A stretch of 64,000 nucleotides of DNA, from the NCBI GenBank assembly GCA_002813105.2, contig CP017966.2:790745-854744 (forward strand). The letters run 5' to 3'. Every line of letters starts with the position of its first letter. Position 1 is the first letter of the stretch. Both the position numbers and the translations under genes were made by a program. Shown here one piece after another: positions 20,304 through 45,554 of this stretch. The stretch comes from Methanosarcinales archaeon Met12 (lineage in GTDB: Archaea; Halobacteriota; UBA148; JAJOKI01). The notes under the pieces were generated by a model. The model searched no databases. It was given only the letters and a program-made list of their open reading frames with translations, and was not told the DNA's origin.

Positions 20304-20549
20304 ATGATGATTGTAATAAAATCGAAGGTTGGTTCAAGGGGCCAGATCGTGATACCAAAGATAGCAAGGGACAATCTCGGCATGATCGAGGGTTCAGGGA
20401 TTATTATTGAGCTGGCAGATGATGGGATACAAATCAAATCGGCAGAAAAAGACATATTGTCGAAGTGGAGCAGGATTGCAGAAGAAGAGGGCATGGATGT
20501 AAAAAAAGAGATAAAATACGGGGATAGGTTGTATGAAGAGATATTCTGA
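20304..20549 (+). CDS. vapB: AbrB/SpoVT-type antitoxin VapB
   Basis: KVGSRGQIVIPKIARDNLGMIEGSGIII. Confidence 0.8.
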   Translation: MMIVIKSKVGSRGQIVIPKIARDNLGMIEGSGIIIELADDGIQIKSAEKDILSKWSRIAEEEGMDVKKEIKYGDRLYEEIF

Positions 20550-20970
20550 AACAGTATACCTTGATGCAAACTTCTTCATTTTCTCGTTGCTCGATAAAAC
20601 GGAAGTTGGCGAAGATGCAAGGATGATATATCAAAAGATGGTCGAAGGAAAACTAAATACTGCTACATCGTCTCTGACATTTGACGAAATGATGTGGGCA
20701 CTGGTCAAAGCAAATAAGAGGCATCTAATAAAGGATGCCGTGAATGACATCTACAAAACTCGGAATTTGATAATATTACCTGTCTCAATCTCTATCCCAT
20801 TAAATGCAATTGAACTGATATTAAAAGGTCTAAATCCAAGGGACGCTTTTCATGTAAGCTGTATGATGGAAAACAAGATAACAACGATTATTTCAGACGA
20901 TCGAGATTTCAAGGCGATCGAGGATATCAAGTGCTTCAATTTCAAGGATTTTCTTTTGGAGATAGCGTAA
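20533..20970 (+). CDS. vapC: PIN-domain toxin VapC
   Basis: VYLDANFFIFSLLD and ISDDRDF motifs. Overlaps vapB. Confidence 0.85.
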   Translation: MKRYSETVYLDANFFIFSLLDKTEVGEDARMIYQKMVEGKLNTATSSLTFDEMMWALVKANKRHLIKDAVNDIYKTRNLIILPVSISIPLNAIELILKGLNPRDAFHVSCMMENKITTIISDDRDFKAIEDIKCFNFKDFLLEIA

Positions 20971-21064: not shown

Positions 21065-21628
21065 TTAGGGATTTGTATATCGCTCGAGTTCATGCAGGAT
21101 GCCGAGTAGGACTAAGAGATTTGGGTCGTCACGTGAGAATAGTTTTTTCAATACTTTCTCTGCCCCCTCGCTGGTTACAATGCTCTTTTTGATGTCCCAG
21201 ATCGGAGATCTGGGAGAGTTGTAGTCCCGAAGGGACTTCAACAATCCCCATAGTGGCAGGTAGCAAATGGGAACGCATCTGAGCCCGAGTTTTGAGGCAG
21301 TGCTTATCGCGAGCTTATCATCCAATAAAATCTCAGGTAAATCCAGCTGGAGTGCCAATGCAATGGCCGCACACTCCCCCCTCCCCATCTTCCCTCTGCT
21401 GAGAAGTGAACTGAGGTATTTCATGCCTGTCCTGTTCAGCTCTTCTTTCTCGATGAAACCCTCCTCTATCAGTAGACTTATTCGTTGAACGTGCTTTTTT
21501 GGCCTCCTATGTTCATCGAAAACCTCGGTTGGAACATAGATTTTCGAGTATCTCTTCTTCGCGAGCAGTATCAGGCTCTCGTCTTTAGGTAGATCGATGA
21601 TGATGGATGCGTCGGCGGAGGCTTTCAT
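21065..21628 (-). CDS. COG2405/DUF3368-type PIN-like toxin
   Basis: GRGECAAIALALQLDLPEILLDDKLAISTASKLGLRCV matches the DUF3368 core. Confidence 0.6.
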   Translation of the reverse strand: MKASADASIIIDLPKDESLILLAKKRYSKIYVPTEVFDEHRRPKKHVQRISLLIEEGFIEKEELNRTGMKYLSSLLSRGKMGRGECAAIALALQLDLPEILLDDKLAISTASKLGLRCVPICYLPLWGLLKSLRDYNSPRSPIWDIKKSIVTSEGAEKVLKKLFSRDDPNLLVLLGILHELERYTNP

Positions 21629-21632
21629 CCCC

Positions 21633-21950
21633 TCAGACCTCTGCACCGAGCTCTTCGAGAAGCAGTTTTTTGATGTTCTCAACGTCTATGTCTCTGGGTA
21701 CTTTTTTGCTTTCAATGAAATCGATGAAATCAGGTAGTGATAGCTTTGCGAGTCTCGCCGCTCTCTCGAGAGAGGCTTTTTCTTTTTTATATAACTCCAG
21801 TGCCAGTTCCTTTCTTTTCTCCTCGATTCCTACCTCGAAGACCTCTCTGATGACCGCTGATTTACTCTTCTTCTCTATTCTCCCCAGCTCATCAAGCTCT
21901 GCCACAAAGTTTTTTGAAATCCTAAATCCTACGTATTTGGTTTCTGCCAT
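21633..21950 (-). CDS. UPF0175-family antitoxin
   Basis: LALELYKKEKASLERAARLAKLSLPDFIDFIESKKV is the UPF0175 HTH pattern. Confidence 0.65.
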   Translation of the reverse strand: MAETKYVGFRISKNFVAELDELGRIEKKSKSAVIREVFEVGIEEKRKELALELYKKEKASLERAARLAKLSLPDFIDFIESKKVPRDIDVENIKKLLLEELGAEV

Positions 21951-22008
21951 TTGACCACGTGAAAACATTGTTGTCACATAATTTAAAGTTGTCGCTGAAA
22001 AGTTTGTC

Positions 22009-22036
22009 AAAAATAAAAAAATTAGGGAAGAAGGGA
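22009..22036. repeat. right direct repeat, part of the surface-protein gene terminator
   Basis: AAAAATAAAAAAATTAGGGAAGAAGGGA. On the minus strand it forms the AGAAGGGA GCAA TCCCTTCT hairpin followed by an oligo-T tract after stop 22065. Confidence 0.7.
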
Positions 22037-22064: not shown

Positions 22065-23303
22065 TTACTCTTCTTTGCGTCTCAGCACCAGATATGCTAC
22101 CGCAAGCAGTCCGAGGATTGCGAATATCGCTCCGAATCCTGGAACTGGTACTGGTGTGGGTGTTGGCGTAGGCGTCGGAGTTGGTGTAGGTGTTGGCACT
22201 GGTGTAGGCGTCGGAGTTGGTGTTGGAGTTGGTGTAGGCGTTGGCACGACCACTACTGCCTCAAGGACGTGTACGGTCGTCCGTTCTGCTGGTGTGCCTA
22301 AGATTTCGACTTCAACCTCCCATGCTCCTATTGCGAAGCCGGTTGTGTTGAACTCTGCAGTCACCCTACCATCTACAACCACTGGGCGTGCCAGTGCGAC
22401 GGCCCCAGCAGGTCCTGTCAGCGTTACGGTTGCCAGTTTACCAGCCATCCTGTTCGTCTCTGCTTCAACGGTCAAGTCTCTGCCCACTGTAACATTTGCA
22501 ATGGGAAGAATCGTCAGGATGTCTCTCTCGACCCTGAACTCCCTGATGGTCAGTATGTCGTCACTGCCTGCAACGGTTGCTCTAGCCCTAATCATGGATG
22601 TAATCTCTGCGATTGTTCTACCAGCGTAGTGACCCCGAGCCGCAGTCAGGTTCGCACCTATTATTACATCTGTTCTTCCATCCCTGCCTGGATGTACCAC
22701 GAACACGGTGTATGTGCCTCTTGTCACTGCTGTTGCGAACGGTCTCTGTTCGTATGTCCAGTCAGCTGCCCTGACGGTGACATTGCCACTGAAGTCTATG
22801 CGTGAAATGTCGTTCCTGACCACTATCATGCCGACCCATGGGGCACCACGTGCTCTACCATCGACCCTCATGTCTACGGTATCGCTCTCAGCTGTGACTG
22901 CCGGTACGTTTACGACTAAATCGCCTTCAACCAGTCGTATCGAAGTGACTGCGTCTGGGGATGGTTTGATGCCTGATACGTCAGTGGCGTATACGTTTAT
23001 CCTGTAGGTGCCTGGCAGTAGTCCGCTAGTGACCCATGTGTGCCTGTAGACATTAGCGGCATCCACTCGCGTGAATACCACTGTCACGTTCTCGCCAGCC
23101 GGGTTTATGACACGGATGGTCGCACCCAAGTTACCCGTCACCGTACCCGTGATGTCCACCCTCTCGCCGATTATGGCGGTCGTCGGTGCGGATACGGTTG
23201 CCAAACCCCTGCCCACGGTGATGACAATCGATGCCTCTCTCATTGGAACGGCGACACGGTCCGTAGCCGTCACGGTGAATGTGCGGTCCATGGCGAACTC
23301 CAT
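22065..23303 (-). CDS. PGF-CTERM surface (S-layer-like) glycoprotein, C-terminal portion
   Basis: Repeated Ig-like beta-rich modules, a PT-rich linker, then PVPGFGAIFAILGLLAVAYLVLRRKEE (PGF-CTERM archaeosortase signal). No signal peptide of its own. Confidence 0.8.
   Translation of the reverse strand: MEFAMDRTFTVTATDRVAVPMREASIVITVGRGLATVSAPTTAIIGERVDITGTVTGNLGATIRVINPAGENVTVVFTRVDAANVYRHTWVTSGLLPGTYRINVYATDVSGIKPSPDAVTSIRLVEGDLVVNVPAVTAESDTVDMRVDGRARGAPWVGMIVVRNDISRIDFSGNVTVRAADWTYEQRPFATAVTRGTYTVFVVHPGRDGRTDVIIGANLTAARGHYAGRTIAEITSMIRARATVAGSDDILTIREFRVERDILTILPIANVTVGRDLTVEAETNRMAGKLATVTLTGPAGAVALARPVVVDGRVTAEFNTTGFAIGAWEVEVEILGTPAERTTVHVLEAVVVVPTPTPTPTPTPTPTPVPTPTPTPTPTPTPTPVPVPGFGAIFAILGLLAVAYLVLRRKEE
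22144..22250. repeat. low-complexity coding repeat (Pro-Thr linker)
   Basis: GGTGT(A/T)GG-type hexamer reiteration encoding PTPTPTPTPTPTPVPTPTPTPTPTPTPTPVPV. Confidence 0.85.
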
Positions 23304-24671: not shown

Positions 24672-24698
24672 CTGATGTCATCGCCTTATCTCTGGAAT
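24672..24698. repeat. left direct repeat flanking the hicAB cassette
   Basis: CTGATGTCATCGCCTTATCTCTGGAAT, 25/27 identical to 25297-25323. Confidence 0.75.
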
Positions 24699-24728
24699 GT
24701 TTTGTGGTGGTGGCGAAAATTTATGTAT

Positions 24729-24752
24729 GTTGAACCACATAGGGATTACAAC
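24729..24752. repeat. degenerate solo H2 hairpin of the composite palindromic element family
   Basis: GTTGAACCACATAGGGATTACAAC compared with GTTGAAATCCCATAGGGATTACAAC at 40006-40030. Confidence 0.55.
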
Positions 24753-24809
24753 TATCACCGAACCCCAGAGATAATGGTCTCAAGAACGGTTCGAGTATGG
24801 ATAAAGACG

Positions 24810-25016
24810 ATGAAATTTAAAGTAATTGTAAGTGAAGGGGAAGACGGATGGTACGTTGTTGAATGCCCTGCCTTGCCTGGATGTGTTTCTCAAGGAAAAA
24901 CTATAGAGGATGCCTTAGAAAATATTAAAGATGCCATCCAGGGTTGTTTAGAAGTTCTAAATCAAAGAGCAAGAGCATTCAGTGTCCATGATAAAGTGGT
25001 AGAGGTAGTTGTTTAA
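24810..25016 (+). CDS. hicB: HicB-family antitoxin
   Basis: MKFKVIVSEGEDGWYVVECPALPGCVSQGKTIEDALENIKDAI (UPF0150/HicB fold). Confidence 0.8.
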   Translation: MKFKVIVSEGEDGWYVVECPALPGCVSQGKTIEDALENIKDAIQGCLEVLNQRARAFSVHDKVVEVVV

Positions 25017-25376: not shown

Positions 25377-25931
25377 TTACAGCTTCTTCACCATCTTTTC
25401 AAGAAGTTCAACCGTTCGATTTTGCCCATTAACTATTTTATCCTGCCCCTCTGTCAGCGAATCCAGACTTTGTATCATTTTATCCTGACCCTTAACCAGC
25501 GAATCCTGCCCCTCTGTCAGCGAATCCAGACTTTGTATCATTTTATCCTGACCACCCAACAGGGCTCCTGTGTTCCTCTCGACCCCCCGAATTGATTCAA
25601 TCCCGACATCGAGTTTTCTTCCAATATCGCTCAATTCGTCTGTTGGTGCCTTGAAAAATACCTGGGGCAGGTACACATCGCAGGGTATTTCTTCCTTATT
25701 TACTTCATCTATTGCAGCTCCAACGTTCACACATTTGTCCTCAAGTTCCTTTACCAGACTTGTGACCAAAGGAGCTGCTCCCCTGCAAACGATCTTTACG
25801 GTGCCATCACTATCGTTATAGACCATGCCTCTGACATTAAGGCTTTTGGCAATACTTTCGACCAGATTCCTGAATCCTGTATCTTGAACCCTGCCTTTTA
25901 TCTGGATGTTGTAGTTTTTGTGGGCTTGCAT
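25377..25931 (-). CDS. acylphosphatase-like domain protein with repeated helical tail
   Basis: IQIKGRVQDTGFRNLV...GMVYNDSDGTVKIV resembles the acylphosphatase fold. The C-terminus carries a duplicated 21-aa unit (GQDKMIQSLDSLTEGQD). Confidence 0.6.
   Translation of the reverse strand: MQAHKNYNIQIKGRVQDTGFRNLVESIAKSLNVRGMVYNDSDGTVKIVCRGAAPLVTSLVKELEDKCVNVGAAIDEVNKEEIPCDVYLPQVFFKAPTDELSDIGRKLDVGIESIRGVERNTGALLGGQDKMIQSLDSLTEGQDSLVKGQDKMIQSLDSLTEGQDKIVNGQNRTVELLEKMVKKL
25440..25553. repeat. 63-nt tandem duplication inside a CDS
   Basis: A 51-nt exact copy (ATCCTGCCCCTCTGTCAGCGAATCCAGACTTTGTATCATTTTATCCTGACC) at 25440-25490 and 25503-25553. Confidence 0.9.
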
Positions 25932-26204: not shown

Positions 26205-26612
26205 TTAGCATACTTCCTCAGGCGACTTTACCTCGATTTCCGTTATTCTTTTAAACTCTTCATCCCTTGTAACTAGGGCACATCTCCGAACTTTGCATGT
26301 GGAGACGATAATCGCATCTGGAAGTCTCACCTTATATTTGGCTCTGATCGTCGATGCTTCTTTCGCGATGGATATATCCACATCGATGATTGTGAAGTTG
26401 TTAATGCTCATTATGTCTATGAGAAACTTTTCCCCTTTTTCAATCTCCCTGCTCGATTGGAACCCGCTTAAGATTTCCGCTATACATATCACAGAAGTGA
26501 AGCCAACATGTTTTCCTTTATGAATGTTTTCGAGTACCATCTTCGCTGCGTGATAATTTTCTTCTTCGTTTAGAATGCTCAGGAAGATGTTGGTGTCTAC
26601 AAACAACCTCAT
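26205..26612 (-). CDS. vapC: PIN-domain toxin VapC
   Basis: MRLFVDTNIFLSIL and VTRDEEF motifs. Confidence 0.85.
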   Translation of the reverse strand: MRLFVDTNIFLSILNEEENYHAAKMVLENIHKGKHVGFTSVICIAEILSGFQSSREIEKGEKFLIDIMSINNFTIIDVDISIAKEASTIRAKYKVRLPDAIIVSTCKVRRCALVTRDEEFKRITEIEVKSPEEVC

Positions 26613-26632
26613 ACAGTTACTTCTCTCGTTCT

Positions 26633-26863
26633 TCACCTCTCCCACTCATCCCGTATCCGCATCTGGTAATTCATGCTCTTTCCAAATATGCCCTTTCCCA
26701 GCCCAACGAGGTCTGCTATTGGCTGACTTGGGGATTTTTTCAGCACGATTTTTTCACCTTCAACTTCGAACATCACTTTTCCTCCTGTCTTGATGTCCAG
26801 TAGTCTCCTCATCCGCTGGGGGATGGTGACTTGTCCCTTTTTTGTGATTTTACTACACTCCAT
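26633..26863 (-). CDS. vapB: AbrB/SpoVT-type antitoxin VapB
   Basis: KKGQVTIPQRMRRLLDIKTGGKVMFEV. Confidence 0.8.
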   Translation of the reverse strand: MECSKITKKGQVTIPQRMRRLLDIKTGGKVMFEVEGEKIVLKKSPSQPIADLVGLGKGIFGKSMNYQMRIRDEWER

Positions 26864-33937: not shown

Positions 33938-34088
33938 GTCGCAGATGGAACATGTCACAGTTCGGAGAACTGTGAGAGTTGTATTTCCTTCGGAAATTCA
34001 ACACCGACTAACTCAGAAGAGTTAGACGGACTCACAGATCTTCGATCTGTGACCTCTGCGAGAGTTGTAACCCTGAAAGGGTTTCAAC
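33938..34088. repeat. nest of composite palindromic elements (H1, H2 and X hairpins)
   Basis: Partial H1 (GTCGCAGATGGAACAT), then a full 49-nt H1-H2 unit at 33954-34002, X hairpin at 34004-34029, H1 at 34032-34052, an orphan half-H1, and H2 at 34064-34088. Confidence 0.75.
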
Positions 34089-34090
34089 AT

Positions 34091-35065: not shown

Positions 35066-35114
35066 GTCGCAGTTCGGAGAACTGCGAGAGTTGTAATTCC
35101 TTTGGAATTTCAAC
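35066..35114. repeat. 49-nt H1-H2 composite palindromic element
   Basis: GTCGCAGTTCGGAGAACTGCGAGAGTTGTAATTCCTTTGGAATTTCAAC, in the 5' region of the RFAP synthase gene. Confidence 0.75.
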
Positions 35115-35176
35115 ATCAACGAATTTTTCAACAGTCATATCAGTAGCCCTGAACCAAAATACAAAAAACCATGTCA

Positions 35177-35398: not shown

Positions 35399-35700
35399 TT
35401 CACGCTTCTCCTTTGTTTATAGTCATCTTTCCATATATTTAAGTCTGGCCTATAAACTATTATGATAATCAATGCATCCTCATGGGGCGCGCATACTACA
35501 TGTATGGGTGATTTGTGTATCGAGCACAGCAAGAGGCAGCTGGCCCCTCTGGGATCATCTGGATGTTCCTCGATAACATCAAAATCTTGTTTCAGGGCTT
35601 GCTCTAGTTCTTCAGCAGTGATATTTTCAAGGGACTCTTTTTCAACCGCATGTAACGTGTGTCGTATGTTGTTAAGGCGTGATATTATTTCATCTCGCAT
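35395..35700 (-). CDS. DUF4258-like toxin
   Basis: C-terminal [22 protein letters not shown] pattern. ATG 35700 is preferred because the longer ORF would overlap ileS by 145 nt. Confidence 0.6.
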
Positions 35701-38700
35701 TTCCCAATCCCAAACTCCATCTCGATGTTTTCTATGGTCCATTTCTTTACCAAATCGCCTTTTATCGTGATATCTATGCCCATATTCAGACTCTCTGCCC
35801 TGACCTCGCCTGAGATGAAATCTCTCCATGCACTCATTAAACCAACCACTCGCCCATCCTGGATTCTCATGGACACGTCTATTTTGTCCATCATATCGAG
35901 GTTCAGCTCGCGTCGCATGTCCTGAATGCGTCTGATGACCTCTCTGGCATACCCCTCTGCAATGAGTTCATCGGTCAACTCGACATCCACGTATATGCGC
36001 CCGCCAGAGAACTCTGCCACGCTGATGTGTTCGGGAACGCTCTCCTCAAATCCAACCATCTCCTCGGTGATGAGGACCTCACCGTCAGGTAGTTTGAGTT
36101 CGTATCCCCTAGCAATTTTCCTTTTTACTACCCTGCCATCGATCTTTTTGAGCGCATCGATGACCTTGCCAGCCCTTCCCTTGAACTCCGGTCCGATGCG
36201 ATTGGGGTTCGGAACGACCTTGAGTCCGAGCTCCTCCCACTCCTCTCCCGCCTCGAGTACGATGAGCTCCTTTGTATTTGCCTGCTCCTTGATAACGCTT
36301 TCAAGTGATTTGACCGCCTTGTTCACGGCGTCGTTATCTGGCGCTATCACGATTACCTTCACAGGCCACCTCAGCTTCCGCTTGGCCTTCTGGCGCGCAT
36401 TCGAGGCGGCTTCAACCACCCTCCGTGCGACATCCATATGCGCTTCAAGAGTTTTATTTATCGACTTTTTGTCTGCGACCGTCCAGTCGCACATATGCAC
36501 GGTAGGCAGCCGCATTGCGACATCGCCTTCATGACTCACGTTCTGGTAGATGTCCTCTGCAATGAACGGCGTAAAGGGCGCCATCAGCTTGACAATGGTA
36601 TCCGTCACAGCCCATATCGTGCGATATGCCGCGAACTTGTCTGGGTCATCTTCCTCTATCCACATCCTCGGGCGTATCAATCTGATGTACCAGCGCGACA
36701 AATCCTCCACTATGAAATTCTGGAGCGCTCTGGTCGCTCGGTGCAGCTCATACCTGGCCATCGCATCCTCTACTTCTAAAATCAGCGAATTAACCTTTGA
36801 TAGGACCCATTTATCCTCAATCCTGAGATGTGATTTCACGGATTCCGACGACACAGCAGAGGGGTCGAAATTGTCAAGCGCCATATAGGGAAGCGGAAAG
36901 CGATACACGTTCCATAGAATGTTCAACATGCGATGCGCATTCTGGACATCCTCTATGATAAATCGAAGGTCTTCCCACGGCGCGTTTGATGAAAGGACAT
37001 AAAAGCGCAGCGTATCCGCGCCGTACCTGTTGATGACATCCTCTGGCGTCACCACATTCCCCATACTTTTGGACATCTTCCTGCCGAGGTCGTCCAGCGT
37101 GAAGCCGTGCATTAACACGCTCTTGTAGGGCGCCCGGCCAAACGCTATCATGGATGCGCCAAGCTGCGAATAGAACCACCCTCTCGTCTGGTCATGTCCC
37201 TCGGTGATGAAGTCCGCAGGCCACCATGTATCGAACGCCCCTGATTTGTGCGGGAAGTCCAGCCCAGCCCATGAAGCAATCGCTGAATCGAACCAGACGT
37301 CGAAAACGTCCTCCACTCTGCGCATATCCTCGGTGCATTTTGGACATTTTAAACGGATTTTATCCAGGTCTGGTCGATGCAGTTCCATATCGTCAGGAAG
37401 GTCGCCTGCCCTTTTCTCGAGCTCATCACGCGTTCCGATCACGTCCATGCTACCGCACTCGCATATCCATATCGGCAGCGGGATGCCCCAGTATCTCTGG
37501 CGCGATATGCACCAATCTCTGGCGCCCTCTATCCAGTCCTTAAACCTGGCAGAGCCTGCCCATCTTGGATGCCATTCGACCTTCTCGATTTCCTTCAGCA
37601 TCGAATCCTTCAACTCCGAGACCTTGAGGAACCACTGCTCCGTCGCCAGATAGATAATGGGAGTTTTACAGCGCCAGCAGTGGCCGTATCTGTGCGTAAC
37701 ATTTCCATGCGCCAGCAGCACGCCTTTTTTATCAAGGTCTTCTATGACCTGCGGGTTTGCATCGAAAACATACATGTCCACATACTTGCCTGCATATGCC
37801 GTATAACGTCCATCAGGTCCCACAGGACAAAAGATGGGCAGTTCGTGCTCCGTACCCAATCCAAAGTCGTCCATACCATGTCCTGGAGCGATGTGCACGC
37901 ATCCAGTATTTTCGACGGTCACAAAATCGGCAAGATATACCTTGTGCTCAAAGCCTGCCTGCGCTGGAACGACATCACTTAAAGGATTTTCATACTCAAG
38001 CCCGACCAGGTCCCTGCCACGCATTGTTTCGAGAACCTCGTAATCCTGATAGTGCCCCTCCTTCAGAACGTTCTCGACCAGTTCTGATGCCATGATCAAT
38101 ATCTCGTCCCGGTTTTCGTCCCATGCACGCACCTTTGAATACTTAAAATCCGAATGCACCGCAACCGCTATGTTGGAAGGGATTGTCCACGGAGTTGTCG
38201 TCCAGATTACGATGTGGGTGTCGTCCTCTCCGACAAGTCGAAACTCCTTTGGAGTTTCAGACAGTCGGGAAATCTTCGATTTCCGACTTACTGGAAATTT
38301 GACATAAATCGAGGGGTCGGTTCGATCCCAGTACTCGACCTCGGAATCCGCGATAGCGGTTTCACACCGCGAACACCAGTTGACAACCCTTTTGCCCCCC
38401 TCGAGCAGTCCCTTTTTGTGTGCCTGTTTTATCGTCCACCAGGCAGCTTCGATGTAACCGTCATCAATCGTCATGTAGGGGTCATCCCAGTCAAGCCATG
38501 CGCCGAGTCGCTTAAACTGCGCTGTCATCTGTTCCTTATTCTGGAGGGCAAAGCGCTTGCACTCATCGATAAATCGATCGGAACCATATGCTTCGATATC
38601 CTTTTTCGTCTTGAAACCGAGATGCTCCTCCACTTTGACCTCGATGGGGAGGCCGTGCATATCCCATCCTGCTCTGTCCAGGACGTCAAATCCCTTCATC

Positions 38701-38924
38701 GATTTAAAGCGCAATACCACATCCTTGATGATCTTATTCCATGCGGTACCGAGGTGAATGGCTCCCGTCGTATATGGCGGACCATCCACAAAATAAAATC
38801 GCTGGCTGCCCTTCCGATGTTCTCGCGTGCGCTTGTACGCCTCCGCCTCATTCCACTGTCGGATAACCCGTTCTTCTACCTTGTGTGAATCATATTGTCC
38901 TGCCACTTCTTCCTTCACGTCCAT
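35685..38924 (-). CDS. ileS: isoleucine--tRNA ligase
   Basis: 1079 aa. HLGTAW (HIGH), KMSKSMGN (KMSKS), the editing domain and C-terminal zinc knuckles. Confidence 0.95.
38233..38288. repeat. 56-nt double-hairpin element inside the ileS CDS (antisense)
   Basis: ACAAGTCGAAACTCCTTTGGAGTTTCAGACAGTCGGGAAATCTTCGATTTCCGACT, 52/56 identical to 44564-44619. Confidence 0.85.
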
Positions 38925-39058
38925 ACCTCAACTGCTGCGTTTCTGAAATGCTTGTATCCTAATTAAAGATTTCAGTATGACATATGTTTTAAATAACGCC
39001 GAGGAAAGTTATATCTCACATATATGAATATGATATACTAAATACAGGGGGCACGAGG

Positions 39059-40042
39059 ATTAAAGAAGTAATCTGGACCGAGAAATATCGACCGAGGACC
39101 TTGAAGGATGTTTTAGGGCAGGACGCCATAATCGAGCGCCTGCAATCATATGTTAAATCCGGCAGCCTGCCGCACCTGCTTTTTTCTGGTCCGCCGGGGG
39201 TTGGCAAGACGGCATCGGCAATCGCCATCGCAAGGGAGATGTTCGGAGAGGTGTGGAGAAGCAACTTTACAGAGCTCAATGCCTCGGATGAAAGGGGCAT
39301 CGATGTCGTGCGAAATAAGATAAAGAACTTCGCCAGGACAGCTTCCCTGGGCAAAGCCGCGTTCAAGATAATATTTCTCGACGAAGCGGATGCCCTCACC
39401 CACGATGCACAATCTGCACTGCGCCGAACCATGGAGCGCTACACCAGCACGTGTAGATTCATTCTGAGCTGTAACTATTCGTCTAAAATCATCGAACCGA
39501 TTCAGTCCAGATGTGCTGTATATCGATTCAAGCCGATATCTGACGAGGCCGTTGAGAAGTGCATCAGGCAGATTGCAAAAGAAGAGGGCTTGCAGCTCAT
39601 GGACGACGGAATAGAAGCCATCAAATATGTGACGAGAGGGGATATGCGCAAGGCGATAAATTCGCTGCAGTCCGCTGCAGTTATGGGCAAAAAGATCGAT
39701 GCAGATATGATATACCAGACAACCGCCACGGCATGCCCTGGAGAGATGAACGAATTGATCGAGTTATCTCTGAAAGGCGATTTTATGGGGGCAAGGGATA
39801 AATTGGATGCACTGCTCATAGACCACGGTATGGCTGGCGAAGATGTAATATATCAAGTTCACAGGGCAATAATGGACTTCGGCGACATTTCGGACAATCT
39901 GAGAGTCCAGCTGCTTGACAAAATTGGCGAGATTGACTTCAGGCTAACAGAAGGCGCAAACGAAAGAATACAATTGGAGGCGCTGATAGCCCATTTCATG
40001 CTGGTGTTGAAATCCCATAGGGATTACAACTCTCGCAGATGA
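39059..40042 (+). CDS. rfcS: replication factor C small subunit
   Basis: Walker A GPPGVGKT, FLDEADALT and the SRC motif QSRCAVYRF. The conserved IWTEKYRP is encoded upstream of the first canonical start (TTG 39101), so the true start is unresolved. Confidence 0.9.
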   Translation: MKEVIWTEKYRPRTLKDVLGQDAIIERLQSYVKSGSLPHLLFSGPPGVGKTASAIAIAREMFGEVWRSNFTELNASDERGIDVVRNKIKNFARTASLGKAAFKIIFLDEADALTHDAQSALRRTMERYTSTCRFILSCNYSSKIIEPIQSRCAVYRFKPISDEAVEKCIRQIAKEEGLQLMDDGIEAIKYVTRGDMRKAINSLQSAAVMGKKIDADMIYQTTATACPGEMNELIELSLKGDFMGARDKLDALLIDHGMAGEDVIYQVHRAIMDFGDISDNLRVQLLDKIGEIDFRLTEGANERIQLEALIAHFMLVLKSHRDYNSRR

Positions 40043-40054
40043 AACATCTGCGAC
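40006..40054. repeat. 49-nt H2-H1 composite palindromic element overlapping the rfcS 3' end
   Basis: GTTGAAATCCCATAGGGATTACAACTCTCGCAGATGAAACATCTGCGAC. It encodes the last 12 codons and the stop of rfcS. Confidence 0.8.
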
Positions 40055-40114
40055 ACTGGGAAGAAGTAGGTTTCTTTGTTTTACATACTACGCCGTGAGA
40101 TATTCTGTGCCTGA

Positions 40115-40209
40115 TTTTATCAAAACTTTGAGTACAAAGTTTTTATCAAAACTTTGAGTACAAAGTTTTTATCAAAACTTTGAGTACAAAGTTTTTATCA
40201 AAACTTTGA
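40115..40209. repeat. 26-nt tandem repeat, 3 full copies plus a partial one
   Basis: TTTTATCAAAACTTTGAGTACAAAGT x3 plus a 17-nt partial. Each unit contains the ACTTTG AGTA CAAAGT hairpin. The last copies form the 3' end of the DUF2283 gene. Confidence 0.9.
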
Positions 40210-40396
40210 CTGGAGGGACCTCTCCTTCTGGCATGACGTTAAATTTTTCAAAACCGATGACCTCGCCCGTCTTGATGTCTTTTTTGATCAGAAACTCTTC
40301 TTCGGTTTCCTCACAAACTGCTTCCTTAGGCTCACCAAACCACACATCCAACGTATTTCCAACTTTATCAAATATTACTAGGACTTCTTTTGCCAT
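40172..40396 (-). CDS. DUF2283-like small protein
   Basis: 74 aa. GNTLDVWFGEPKEAV...DIKTGEVIGFEKFN pattern. Confidence 0.6.
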   Translation of the reverse strand: MAKEVLVIFDKVGNTLDVWFGEPKEAVCEETEEEFLIKKDIKTGEVIGFEKFNVMPEGEVPPVKVLIKTLYSKF

Positions 40397-40704
40397 ATGA
40401 TGTTCCCCTTCTTTATTTTGTCTGCGAGGTATGCACTAATTATGAATCCCTCACTATTTAATCGTTTGGTCAACACGCAAATATAACGCATCTTTAACCT
40501 TCTATACTGTTTATAGTATAGGAAAACTGTGGAATCTTTCTTGCTTACTCTAACCTCGTCTGGATCTTGAAGCGTCTCTTTAACCTCATTTTCATACTTT
40601 TTAATTATGGGGTGTTTTAATTCGGTGATGAGCTCCCAGTACTCCTCAGTGGTTCTGATCATAACATCCAACGTCGATCTAACCTCAAATCTGATTTTGT
40701 TCAC
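40378..40704 (-). CDS. hypothetical protein, possible toxin partner of the DUF2283 gene
   Basis: 108 aa. Overlaps the downstream DUF2283 gene by 19 nt. No motif recognised. Confidence 0.45.
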   Translation of the reverse strand: MNKIRFEVRSTLDVMIRTTEEYWELITELKHPIIKKYENEVKETLQDPDEVRVSKKDSTVFLYYKQYRRLKMRYICVLTKRLNSEGFIISAYLADKIKKGNIIWQKKS

Positions 40705-41225: not shown

Positions 41226-41281
41226 GCAACACCGACTAACTTAGAAGAGTTAGACGGACTCACAGATGTTTCATCTGTGAC
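41226..41281. repeat. X hairpin plus H1 hairpin unit
   Basis: GCAAC A CCGACTAACTTAGAAGAGTTAGACGG AC TCACAGATGTTTCATCTGTGA C, in the divergent spacer upstream of rps8e. Confidence 0.7.
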
Positions 41282-41359
41282 ACCAACTATCCGAAAGATA
41301 CAAATAACATTCTGTGTTTATTATGTGGAATATGGAATGTAGAATATGGAGGTTCAGCG

Positions 41360-43377: not shown

Positions 43378-43445
43378 CGACTTTCACTTTATGATAGCAA
43401 TACCAAAAGGAACACTTATAACTTTTGCGGTAAATGTACCCAATC

Positions 43446-44132
43446 ATGATTGATTTACATTCTCATACGACTTTTAGCGATGGAGAACTGATACCTGCCG
43501 AGTTAGTGCGCCGAGCAGTAGTTCAAGGATATGCGGCAATCGGACTCACTGACCATGTTGACTTTTCCAATGTAGAATATGTCCTGACCAACCTGAAAAA
43601 GATGAACCTCGAAGGAGAAATGAATATACGGGTCGTAATTGGAGTCGAGATTACTCACATACCTCCTGCTAAGATTGAAAAATTGGTGACCAAAGCAAAA
43701 CAGCTTGGAGCAGAACTGATTGTAATACATGGAGAAACCATGATGGAGCCGGTTGCACCTGGGACCAACAGCGCAGCAGTTCGTCTGGGGGATGTGGACA
43801 TATTGTCTCACCCAGGATTCATCTCGATTGAGGATGCCGAAATAGCACGAGATAATGAAGTATATCTTGAGATCACGTCGCGTCAGGGACACTGCATGAC
43901 AAACGGCTATGTCGCAAAAATTGCCAACGAAGCCGGTGCGATGCTGGTGGTAAATTCGGATGCACACAGTCCGACCGACTTGATTACGAAGAAGAAGGCG
44001 GTCGATATTGCGATGGCGGCGGGACTGGATAAAAATGATGCGGATAAGGCGACAGGAGCCAATCCTCTTAAACTGTTGAAGTCCCTTGGGGCGAAGACGG
44101 TCAAGGGCACTGCCTTCGATTACAAATGTTGA
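43446..44132 (+). CDS. PHP-domain phosphoesterase
   Basis: MIDLHSHTTFSDGE...GLTDHVD...VNSDAH metal-ligand pattern. Confidence 0.7.
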   Translation: MIDLHSHTTFSDGELIPAELVRRAVVQGYAAIGLTDHVDFSNVEYVLTNLKKMNLEGEMNIRVVIGVEITHIPPAKIEKLVTKAKQLGAELIVIHGETMMEPVAPGTNSAAVRLGDVDILSHPGFISIEDAEIARDNEVYLEITSRQGHCMTNGYVAKIANEAGAMLVVNSDAHSPTDLITKKKAVDIAMAAGLDKNDADKATGANPLKLLKSLGAKTVKGTAFDYKC

Positions 44133-44480: not shown

Positions 44481-45554
44481 GTGTATGATATGGAAGAGAT
44501 AAAGGCAGCCGAGGAAGTCGAAAAGAAGATTAGAGTAATCAAAGATAGCCCTGTAGAGTCTCAACAAGTCGAAACTCCAACAGAGTTTCAGACAGTCGGG
44601 AAATCTTCGATTTCCGACTCACGCGAGGAACGGAGAGAGTATGAAGAGGCTAAAATGCAGTGCTCGGAATGTAACAGCTCCCAACTCGTGCACGATTACG
44701 AGAGAGCAGAACTTGTATGCAGCGAGTGCGGACTTGTACTTGAAGAGGATTGTATCGATATGGGGCCCGAGTGGCGGGCCTTCGATCATGACCAGCGAAT
44801 GAAGCGTTCCAGAGTGGGGGCGCCAATGACGTATACGATTCACGACAAGGGTTTGAGCACGATGATCGACTGGCGGAACAGAGATTCATGTGGCAAGTCA
44901 GTATCATCGAAAAACAGGGCACAGTTATATCGGCTGAGAAAATGGCAGCGCAGAATCAGGGTGAACAATGCGACCGAACGAAATCTCGCATTTGCGTTAT
45001 CGGAGTTGGACCGAATGGCATCAGCACTGGGTATGCCAAGAAACATCAGAGAGTCTGCCGCGATTATCTACCGTAAAGCGGTGGAGAAAAATTTAATCAG
45101 GGGGCGCAGCATCGAGGGAGTTGCTGCAGCCGCATTGTATTCCTCGTGCCGGATGAGTTCCGTGCCAAGAACGCTGGACGAGATCGCAGAGGTGTCGAGG
45201 GTGAGCAGAAAGGAGATAGGGCGAACGTATCGATTCGTATCCAGAGAGCTTAAACTCAAACTCATGCCGACGTCTCCAATTGACTATGTATCGCGATTTA
45301 CCTCTGGATTAAATCTCAAAGGTGAGGTGCAGTCCAAGGCAGTTGAAATCTTGCGCCATGCTGCAGAGAGGGAGCTGACGTCAGGGAGAGGTCCCACGGG
45401 GGTCGCAGCAGCCGCGATATATATCGCATCCATTCTTTGCGGAGAACGCAAAACGCAGAGAGAAGTGGCAGATGTGGCAGGCGTGACTGAAGTAACCATC
45501 AGAAACAGGTATAAGGAGTTGGCAGAGGAGCTCGACATAGATATAGTCCTTTAA
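44481..45554 (+). CDS. tfb: transcription initiation factor TFB
   Basis: Zinc ribbon [24 protein letters not shown], the B-finger and two cyclin folds. There is a 60-residue N-terminal extension that contains the 56-nt element. Confidence 0.92.
44564..44619. repeat. 56-nt double-hairpin element inside the tfb CDS (sense)
   Basis: ACAAGTCGAAACTCCAACAGAGTTTCAGACAGTCGGGAAATCTTCGATTTCCGACT. Confidence 0.85.

Follow-up and report, generated by a model that had tools for sequence, protein, structure and literature searches.

A dispersed two-hairpin repeat at the 3' end of rfcS in the archaeon Met12 and the probable replacement of the RFC small-subunit tail

Met12, whose genome measures 1.07 Mb, is a non-methanogenic archaeon of serpentinised groundwater (PMC11176372). 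At the extreme 3' end of its rfcS, the gene for the small subunit of replication factor C (RFC), a short palindromic repeat is inserted. The insert is 51 nt long, consists of two hairpins, stands four codons before the native end of the gene and encodes the last 12 amino acids together with the stop codon. Judged from orthologous sequences, it is very probable that this insertion replaced the tail of the protein, TGKK or AGKK giving way to VLKSHRDYNSRR. An initial annotation, made from the sequence alone, had already placed the element and its two hairpins in rfcS, and positions and sequence were matched. Table 1 lists the features within the window, by which the whole 64-kb stretch of analysed DNA is meant.

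The rfcS product is identified as the RFC small subunit by its homologues, which carry the AAA+ clamp-loader and Rep_fac_C collar domains (Pfam). Over residues 5-316, it matches the solved archaeal structures 2chq (E 2e-136) and 1iqp (E 5e-124). Four sequences of the nearest relatives serve for comparison. L001 is MAG-838, labelled 'Methanocellales archaeon', a Lost City relative of 'Methanocellales archaeon Met12' (PMC11176372), and its RFC shares 95% amino acid identity; L002 and L003 share 90%, and L004 is an independent assembly with 99.6% identity. At the ancestral ATG position (39053), the window and L004 have ACG as against ATG in L001 and L002, and translation may begin with ATT (39059) or TTG (39101). 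Expression of rfcS is thus not entirely conventional, because the start codon has become ACG in this lineage. Relative to L001, the gene shows a dN of 0.027, a dS of 0.345 and a ratio of 0.078, with neither frameshifts nor internal stops, and it is still under strong purifying selection.

In the window, CATTTCATGCTG is followed by the insert GTGTTGAAATCCCATAGGGATTACAACTCTCGCAGATGAAACATCTGCGAC and then by ACTGGGAAGAAGTAG. The orthologous site of L001 is empty at the DNA level and reads CATTTCATGTTG directly joined to ACTGGGAAGAAATAG; ATGTTG and ACTGGGAAGAAATAG together encode MLTGKK and a stop, and the protein ends in AHFMLTGKK. The site is also empty in L002 and L003, where the protein ends in AGSKNI, and it is filled in the same way in L004. 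The reading frame of Met12 runs through ...AHFMLVLKSHRDYNSRR into a TGA at 40040-40042, which gives the C-terminus ...EALIAHFMLVLKSHRDYNSRR. Beyond the stop, the insert would continue with the untranslated NICD. Because 51 nt equal 17 codons, the native TGKK and TAG codons remain in frame behind the insert. The exact empty site of L001 and the displaced TGKK end thus bear out the initial proposal that an insertion replaced the native terminus.

The position of the rfcS junction is ambiguous by 1 nt, and neither placement yields a target-site duplication. Across the family, a T stands before and an A after each copy, and the codon at the insertion position is GCT (Ala) in most orthologues; the event may therefore have been G/TGTTGAA...GCGACA/CT, inside the alanine codon. 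The filled allele occurs in contigs of four groundwater runs, two of DNA and two metatranscriptomes, and one RNA contig covers 39677-40095 including this allele. We infer that the new tail is translated. No empty allele was seen in the contigs of the four runs with the locus, a comparison in which assembler contigs drop rare variants; showing no polymorphic empty allele, these runs give no sign of ongoing mobility.

The initial annotation had the RFC small subunits of Methanosarcina end a few residues after the AHF motif; Met12 itself is not a Methanosarcina and is labelled Methanocellales. Such a short native tail agrees with 119 of 120 homologues, which end 6-15 amino acids past an AHF-type motif (e.g. 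MLAGKK, MLTGKK, MLAGSKNI, ILCGASKK). A tail of the LKSHRDYNSRR type occurs among the 120 only in P0001, the 99%-identical strain variant from L004. An orthologue sharing this tail without the DNA repeat, which would speak against an insertion, was sought and is absent; P0001 carries the repeat. The small subunits of Archaeoglobus fulgidus (2chq) and Pyrococcus furiosus (1iqp) align up to the insertion point and stop 3-4 residues later, which places the insert past the last conserved helix of the collar domain. When RFC-S was modelled with its new tail by AlphaFold, this last helix was simply prolonged at low confidence, with a pLDDT of about 55, and the model is uninformative on function. The tail change is probably neutral or nearly so; it would be tolerated because the site lies past the last conserved collar helix and orthologue tails are freely variable.

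Table 1. Position, strand and supporting evidence of rfcS, its insert and related repeat copies in the window.
Feature	Position	Strand	Evidence or remark
Present reading frame of rfcS (replication factor C small subunit)	39053-40042	+	ORF, homologues, PDB matches
51-nt two-hairpin insert (TGTTGAA...GCGACA)	40004-40054, or equally 40005-40055	+	empty orthologous sites; covariance model 74.7 bits, E 1.6e-18
Hairpin H2, GTTGAAATCCCATAGGGATTACAAC	40006-40030	+	folds, covariation
Hairpin H1 (CGCAGATGAAACATCTGCGAC at 40034-40054)	40033-40053	+	folds, covariation
Displaced native rfcS end, ACT GGG AAG AAG TAG (TGKK, stop)	40055-40069	+	still in frame, now 3' UTR; window read against L001
Canonical 51-nt unit in PIN-like ORF 21065-21682(-)	21194-21244	-	adds 17 aa, LKSLRDYNSPRSPIWDI; 74.6 bits
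Decayed unit upstream of hicB (VEPHRDYNYHR at 24729)	24727-24772	+	17.2 bits
Composite 153-nt array (H2, CGCAGAGGT, H1, H3, H2, H1, half H1)	33938-34090	-	exact insertion vs L002
Canonical 51-nt unit about 30 nt upstream of GHMP-kinase gene start; frame reads LKFQRNYNSRSSPNCD	35066-35116	-	77.3 bits
ileS-type subfamily unit (GTCGAAACTCC..GAC-AGT-CGGGAAATC..CCG) in ileS	38235-38289	+	27.5 bits
60-nt H3+H1 module in divergent DUF2240 / rps8e intergenic region	41229-41288	+	missing from L002
Second ileS-type subfamily copy, upstream of or in N-terminal extension of TFB gene	44566-44618	+	pattern and covariance model

The general layout of the unit is TGTTGAA, stem, loop, stem, TACAAC, TCT, a second hairpin and GACA. 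The first hairpin, H2 (25 nt), stands on a conserved foot of 4 bp; an A.A mismatch, invariant among the copies, follows four pairs above the base of the foot, and above it come an upper stem of 6 bp, five pairs of which vary, and a 3-nt loop. Along the strand, this part consists of T, GTTG, A, the upper stem, the loop, the complementary arm, A and CAAC. It is followed by TCT and by H1, which reads C[G/A/C]CAG..., a 3-nt loop and ...CTG[C/T/G]G, and then by ACA. The H1 of rfcS (21 nt) has a 9-bp stem and the loop AAA, a variant that makes the in-frame TGA (AGA TGA). The initial annotation was right to assign this stop codon to H1, but the codon straddles the boundary rather than lying in the loop, as its TG closes the stem and its A opens the loop. 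Similarly, the unit does lie where it was said to begin, with H2, but it is 51 nt long and starts 1-2 nt before that hairpin.

The rfcS unit folds with -23.7 kcal/mol as RNA (z -8.1) and with -16.3 kcal/mol as DNA (z -10.0). Across 26 distinct copies of 51 nt, pairing extends to 99% of cells and both stems covary, with changes on both sides in 7 of 19 pairs; covariation of this size was reached in none of 500 shuffles. The GTTGAAATCCCATAGGGATTACAAC and CGCAGATGAAACATCTGCGAC patterns had a mean of 0.00 chance matches in 100 shuffles, even with three mismatches allowed. The family was defined by exact and relaxed pattern searches and by a covariance model (R1), with matches down to E ~1e-18. Mosaic arrays, e.g. 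at 33938-34090, are made up of units, half-units and a third hairpin, H3, and a related 54-nt subfamily has the same architecture (GTCGAAACTCC TTT GGAGTTTCAGAC AGT CGGGAAATC TTC GATTTCCG AC). Stem covariation and the constancy of the mismatch suggest that a specific protein recognises the element. Hairpins kept almost perfect by compensatory changes may also reflect a function for the host rather than pure selfishness.

About ten element sites are present within the window. In the PIN-like protein, the unit is read in the rfcS frame as ...LPLWGL-LKSLRDYNSPRSPIWDI-KKSIVTS..., and the L006 orthologue is without these 17 residues. The ileS insert adds 54 nt in frame and 18 amino acids to IleRS, is antisense to the gene and is missing from L001, L002 and L003. 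The 153-nt array lies between the stop of the GHMP-kinase gene (the RFAP synthase gene of the initial annotation) and the start of rpl10e. In the copy upstream of hicB, H2 has lost 1 nt and H1 is decayed. The further copies that the annotation had quoted were found with the translations given, namely LKFQRNYNSRSSPNCD upstream of the GHMP-kinase gene, a 16-residue peptide at 33954-34004(-) within the array, and VEPHRDYNYHR upstream of hicB. All seven subfamily-1 units of the window are in sense orientation relative to local transcription. Six element sites fall within 33.9-41.3 kb of the window, whereas the syntenic regions of L001 and L002, at 88-90% nucleotide identity, have none; the array (153 nt), the 60-nt module, the ileS insert and the rfcS insert are base-exact insertions relative to L002. 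This comparison points to a recent burst of units in the lineage.

Beyond the window, one genome per species of 185,579 species was scanned with the pattern GTTGAA-N13-TACAACTCTCNCAG. At least one exact match was found in 31 stretches, 27 of which belong to seven related MAGs or genomes: MAG-838, binchicken_co24_98, CSMAG_2511, CSMAG_2674, Yes46-07, Yes46-10 and Met33H (complete, 0.99 Mb). The other four are from Microcoleus or Streptomyces, roughly the chance number estimated for 19 specified bases, and all of them fail the covariance model. By these searches, the family has turned up in no lineage but the Met12-like one, which has a reduced genome and is labelled 'Methanocellales archaeon'. 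There is no match to an Rfam family, either at the gathering threshold over the whole window or at E<=1 over 33.8-41.4 kb. The only Rfam hits at these settings are spurious miRNA matches on a 26-nt tandem repeat. A literature search yielded no description of these repeats or of such elements in archaea of this clade, and the words 'repeat' and 'transposase' do not occur in the main text of the Met12 paper (PMC11176372). The archaeal repeat family thus is apparently undescribed so far.

Several genes have been invaded in a similar way. In relatives, units lie in frame inside the Pfam-confirmed genes for CarB, ThiC, an ELP3-like radical-SAM protein, Trm1, HemD and TtuA. Further genes of relatives confirmed by Pfam are those for a CobD-like protein, for phosphopantothenate synthetase, which has two in-frame units, and for a CobQ-like protein, which has an identical in-frame insert in Met33H and Yes46-10. 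In other genes, the unit supplies the stop codon: aSUI1 ends in ...GDVEIS with a TAG in the H2 loop, a dCMP deaminase ends in the rfcS frame with ...VLKFCRNYNSV, and a dihydroneopterin aldolase and a PHP-domain protein share an ending in which TGT TGA at the start of the unit gives a terminal C and the stop. Given this repeated gene invasion and supply of stop codons, the rfcS case is one instance of a general habit of the family.

Two of the six frames of the 51-mer are always closed, by TGA in GTTGAA and by TAA in GTTGTAA. The frame xLKSxRDYNSRR, which had been described as open in every copy, is indeed open in 25 of 26 distinct copies, but the sole exception is the rfcS copy itself. Equally open, in 25 of 26 copies each, are two reverse frames; a fourth frame (VEIPxxLQLSQ) lacks a stop in 11 of the 26. 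The idea that one open frame is special does not hold, and a single privileged frame was rejected, since openness in 25 of 26 copies is shared by three frames and copies within genes use all four usable frames and both orientations. As 24% of random two-hairpin 51-mers have at least four open frames, frame openness is not evidence of design and gives no statistical sign of selection for translatability. It is explained by the survival of harmless insertions.

In the preferred reading, a two-hairpin palindromic unit of 51 nt entered rfcS in a recent ancestor of the population, without target-site duplication. The rare AAA loop variant of this copy puts TGA in frame, and translation would end inside the element. 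More generally, the element would spread as hairpin modules and persist where no gene is broken, that is, in intergenic DNA, at gene ends and at tolerant in-frame positions. The most fitting interpretation is DNA of the REP, MITE or RPE (Rickettsia palindromic element) kind that is, or once was, selfish, and the evidence leans towards selfish DNA moved by a hairpin-recognising enzyme. This enzyme would probably act on single-stranded DNA, where it would recognise the imperfect hairpins. Among about 30 scanned ORFs of the window, which comprise housekeeping and toxin-antitoxin genes only, there was no transposase and no other enzyme of mobilisation, and no insertion sequence was seen in the window or in the compared loci of relatives. 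Three comparisons of filled and empty sites revealed no target-site duplication longer than 1 nt, and no conserved target motif was present in the left flank across about 40 copies.

Instead of being selfish, the element may have been recruited by the host as an RNA double hairpin that stabilises mRNA, marks 3' ends or binds a protein at gene 3' ends, the RFC tail being a by-product. This is unlikely. It would agree with the compensatory changes and the invariant A.A mismatch, with the strong folding, with the sense orientation of the seven subfamily-1 units and with the presence of the unit in metatranscriptome contigs. Several units also adjoin gene 3' ends, like bacterial REPs (PMC3733652). 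However, the units of relatives occur within genes, far from their ends, and in either orientation, which is ill suited to a 3'-end signal, and the syntenic region of close relatives works without any unit. The native T-rich stretch past the old stop is also still present (40071-40084), and a search for a stem plus a T-run scored no terminator-like site. On this search, an intrinsic terminator was rejected as well.

Two other readings concern the fate of the gene rather than the nature of the element. The TGA in H1 might be read through or recoded, which would give an RFC with a 17-residue internal insert and its native TGKK end. The length of exactly 17 codons and the in-frame NICD-TGKK-TAG past the TGA would fit, as would the use of the unit as an internal insert in other genes, such as that of the PIN-like protein; but such internal copies are without a stop in that frame, the rfcS copy alone (1 of 26) having one, and no recoding signal is evident at rfcS. 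Among archaea, the decoding of selenocysteine is not known outside Methanococcales and Methanopyrus. Read-through at rfcS is most improbable. A drift of rfcS into a pseudogene, with the ACG start and the 3' element as its marks and perhaps a paralogue as backup, is highly unlikely too. Some Methanosarcinales do have two RFC small-subunit paralogues. The ACG start, shared with L004 as against the ATG of L001 and L002, would fit such decay, as would the reduced genome of about 1 Mb in this lineage (PMC11176372). Against it stand the low dN/dS ratio, the intact reading frame, an N-terminal WTEKYRPRTL segment that matches states found in other orthologues, the presence of rfcS in RNA assemblies and a loss limited to four terminal residues. 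The chance of an assembly artefact, i.e. a collapsed repeat or a wrong contig join at the junction, is virtually negligible. Repeats do break these assemblies, as contigs end at a 26-nt tandem repeat close by, and 40005-40039 is overlapped by another contig that stems from a different locus; yet the 51-nt unit is shorter than typical Illumina reads, the junctions are identical in at least five independent assemblies of DNA and RNA, and both flanks are colinear with orthologues to the base. The replacement of the RFC tail by an inserted unit is preferred here to these explanations.

The insertion is not a new mechanism but is REP- or RPE-like, and the known systems each resemble it in part. Bacterial REPs mostly adjoin gene ends, their termini sometimes give a stop codon, and some lie in genes, including those for replication and repair (PMC3733652). 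Like REPs, BIMEs and REPINs, the units are imperfect palindromes of 20-40 nt with stem covariation, mosaic clusters and no target duplication; H2, with 25 nt, and H1, with 21 nt, are short, dispersed and imperfectly palindromic. The GTAG or CGTC tag of REPs was not found. In its place, GTTG in H2 and GTCG on the other strand of H1 and of the ileS-type subfamily are paired in the stem and belong to its foot, unlike the free tag of REPs. Nor was a cognate RAYT, the Y1 transposase gene that REPs flank, found in the window, where none of about 30 scanned ORFs matched a transposase family. No report of REPs in archaea was found in the literature searched. The direct precedent for a repeat that removes a stop and supplies a new C-terminus is provided by RU-1 and ERIC-type elements (Delihas 2007): RU-1 is fused to the 3' end of Erwinia carotovora ECA3499, where the normal stop is lost and a new C-terminus ends at a stop inside the repeat (PMC2759123). 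Those elements differ in being bacterial, 103-168 bp long and MITE-like with terminal inverted repeats.

In the present units, neither the terminal inverted repeats nor the target duplication of MITEs was found; the termini are TGT...ACA, and TGTTG and TGTCG agree at 4 of 5 positions. The PATEs of haloarchaea are minimal elements derived from IS200/IS605. The units resemble the IS200/IS605 type as a non-autonomous archaeal repeat with imperfect hairpins, which are subterminal in that type, and in inserting without target duplication, but they consist essentially of two hairpins and have no conserved left-flank target in about 40 copies. PATEs and the archaeal MITEs of Sulfolobus, Halobacterium and Haloquadratum are, by contrast, hundreds of bp long and have ends in common with identifiable insertion sequences. 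A CRISPR array was rejected, the copies being dispersed singly or abutting without spacers. Rickettsia palindromic elements are dispersed palindromes that have entered various unrelated housekeeping genes in frame, so that the proteins gain additional peptide segments (PMC10969869). The present family shares with them a reduced genome, dispersed palindromes and in-frame entry into housekeeping genes, a likeness in behaviour only. RPEs are bacterial and about 100-150 bp long, whereas the units described here are archaeal, have 51-54 nt and two short hairpins, and form mosaic arrays.

For the annotation of these genomes, the repeat means that gene callers will give wrong protein ends here, e.g. 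in the RFC tail, and extra loops in IleRS and other proteins; the N-terminal extensions of rpl10e and of the GHMP-kinase gene arise by reading through units. Because units differ between 90%-identical populations, they may be usable as strain markers for serpentinite-hosted archaea. In a broader and tentative reading, which we consider plausible without favouring it, the Met12-like, reduced-genome 'Methanocellales' of serpentinising groundwaters and vents may carry an archaeal counterpart of RPEs. This would be a two-hairpin unit of 51 or 54 nt, a multiple of three, stop-free in three to four of six frames, which in a recent burst would have come to decorate RFC, IleRS, CarB, ThiC, aSUI1 and ELP3 and be spread by a hairpin-recognising enzyme. 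If true, the RPE phenomenon would extend from reduced-genome bacteria to a reduced-genome archaeon, and this parallel would support a link of small populations and genome reduction with the tolerance of such insertions.

Insertion of repeat units at gene ends extends beyond rfcS, the replication factor C small subunit gene. A decayed copy of the H2 hairpin (CTGTTGAAGTCCCTTGGGGCGAAG, which reads LLKSLGAK) lies in the C-terminal tail of the PHP / RNase P p30-like protein, a tail that terminates with AAA TGT TGA. In a relative's locus (L016), a newer composite insertion occupies the same spot and cuts the tail to ...LLKSLRAKC, then the stop. The 3' end of this gene would seem to be a hot spot at which insertion events are nested.

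Just downstream of rfcS, a 26-nt tandem repeat forms a break point of assemblies and supplies the last codons (...VKVLIKTLYSKF, then the stop) of the small ORF at 40172-40396 (-). A contig of one sequencing run (X1) skips from 40131 to 40210, and the copy number of the repeat therefore appears to be polymorphic.

The codon at the start position of rfcS is ACG in the window (39053-39061) and likewise in L004, a 99.6%-identical independent assembly, while the orthologues in the relatives' loci L001 and L002 have ATG (GGGGGC-ATG-AGG-ATT...). No variant at the ACG position was seen in the run contigs aligned to the window. As the 5' part of the gene has no ATG, GTG or TTG before 39101, and the conserved N-terminal WTEKYRP segment is intact and encoded upstream of that position, the reading frame implies that either initiation is non-canonical, using ACG or ATT, or RFC-S is shortened at its N-terminus.

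Units upstream of genes also affect the calling of starts. Those preceding rpl10e and the GHMP-kinase gene have no stop in the frame of the gene that follows, so that mechanical ORF calls are lengthened by 43 and 32 aa, respectively. Judging from orthologues and from the ribosome-binding-site-like motifs AAGAGG and GGTGG, the real starts lie downstream of the units. L016 has a masked run of N where it corresponds to the open, possibly coding extension that precedes the TFB zinc-ribbon start (MQCSEC...).

Repeat units and other features of the window (positions in the window; strand in brackets)
Feature	Position	Context
Tandem repeat of 26 nt, perfect and palindromic, 3.7 copies	40115-40209	just downstream of rfcS
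PHP / RNase P p30-like protein, C-terminal tail	44070-44132	ORF 43434-44132 (+)
PIN	20533-20970	toxin-antitoxin-like gene
UPF0175/RHH + PIN-like ORF		toxin-antitoxin-like pair
HicB-like	24675-25016	toxin-antitoxin-like gene
PIN	26205-26645	toxin-antitoxin-like gene
Overlapping toxin-antitoxin-like pair	40172-40396 / 40378-40704	faint RelE/barnase-like match
ileS-type 54-nt unit	38235-38289	antisense to ileS (35685-38924 -); 18-aa in-frame insert
Canonical 51-nt unit	21194-21244	in PIN-like ORF 21065-21682 (-); 17-aa in-frame insert
Unit	33954-34004	upstream of rpl10e; open, in frame
Unit	35066-35116	upstream of GHMP-kinase (RFAP-synthase-like) gene; open, in frame
Second ileS-type unit copy	44566-44618	ORF 44481-45554 (+); 57-codon open extension upstream of TFB zinc-ribbon start

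Small toxin-antitoxin-like genes are dense at 20.5-27 kb and 40.2-40.7 kb of the window, a density that is notable given a genome of about 1 Mb, and several hairpin units are situated among them. Two further proteins carry repeats of other kinds. The acylphosphatase ORF (25377-25931 -) encodes 184 aa, about twice the usual length, with the Pfam domain confined to residues 8-83 and a 63-nt tandem duplication of 71% identity in its C-terminal half (repeats 25399-25524). The large secreted-type protein at 22065-23303 (-) has a (PT)n linker that a GGTGT-rich 6/12/18-nt periodic repeat (22134-22241) encodes, and it finishes in PGF...hydrophobic...RRKEE, a C-terminus similar to the PGF-CTERM sorting signal of archaea.

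Units are also found inside coding sequences. The isoleucyl-tRNA synthetase insert, whose unit belongs to a related hairpin subfamily, lies between KFPV and VGED and is missing from three orthologues; similarly, the CSMAG_2511 orthologue of the PIN-like protein, whose gene is paired with the UPF0175/RHH gene (21633-22010), is without the insert. In a CobQ-like gene, a unit occupies the identical place in two different species-level genomes, Met33H (L010, 221-271) and Yes46-10 (L014, 5360-5410), with one weakened H1 pair in each. This unit is an old insertion that has been kept within a coding sequence, and the repeat family could be dated with its help.
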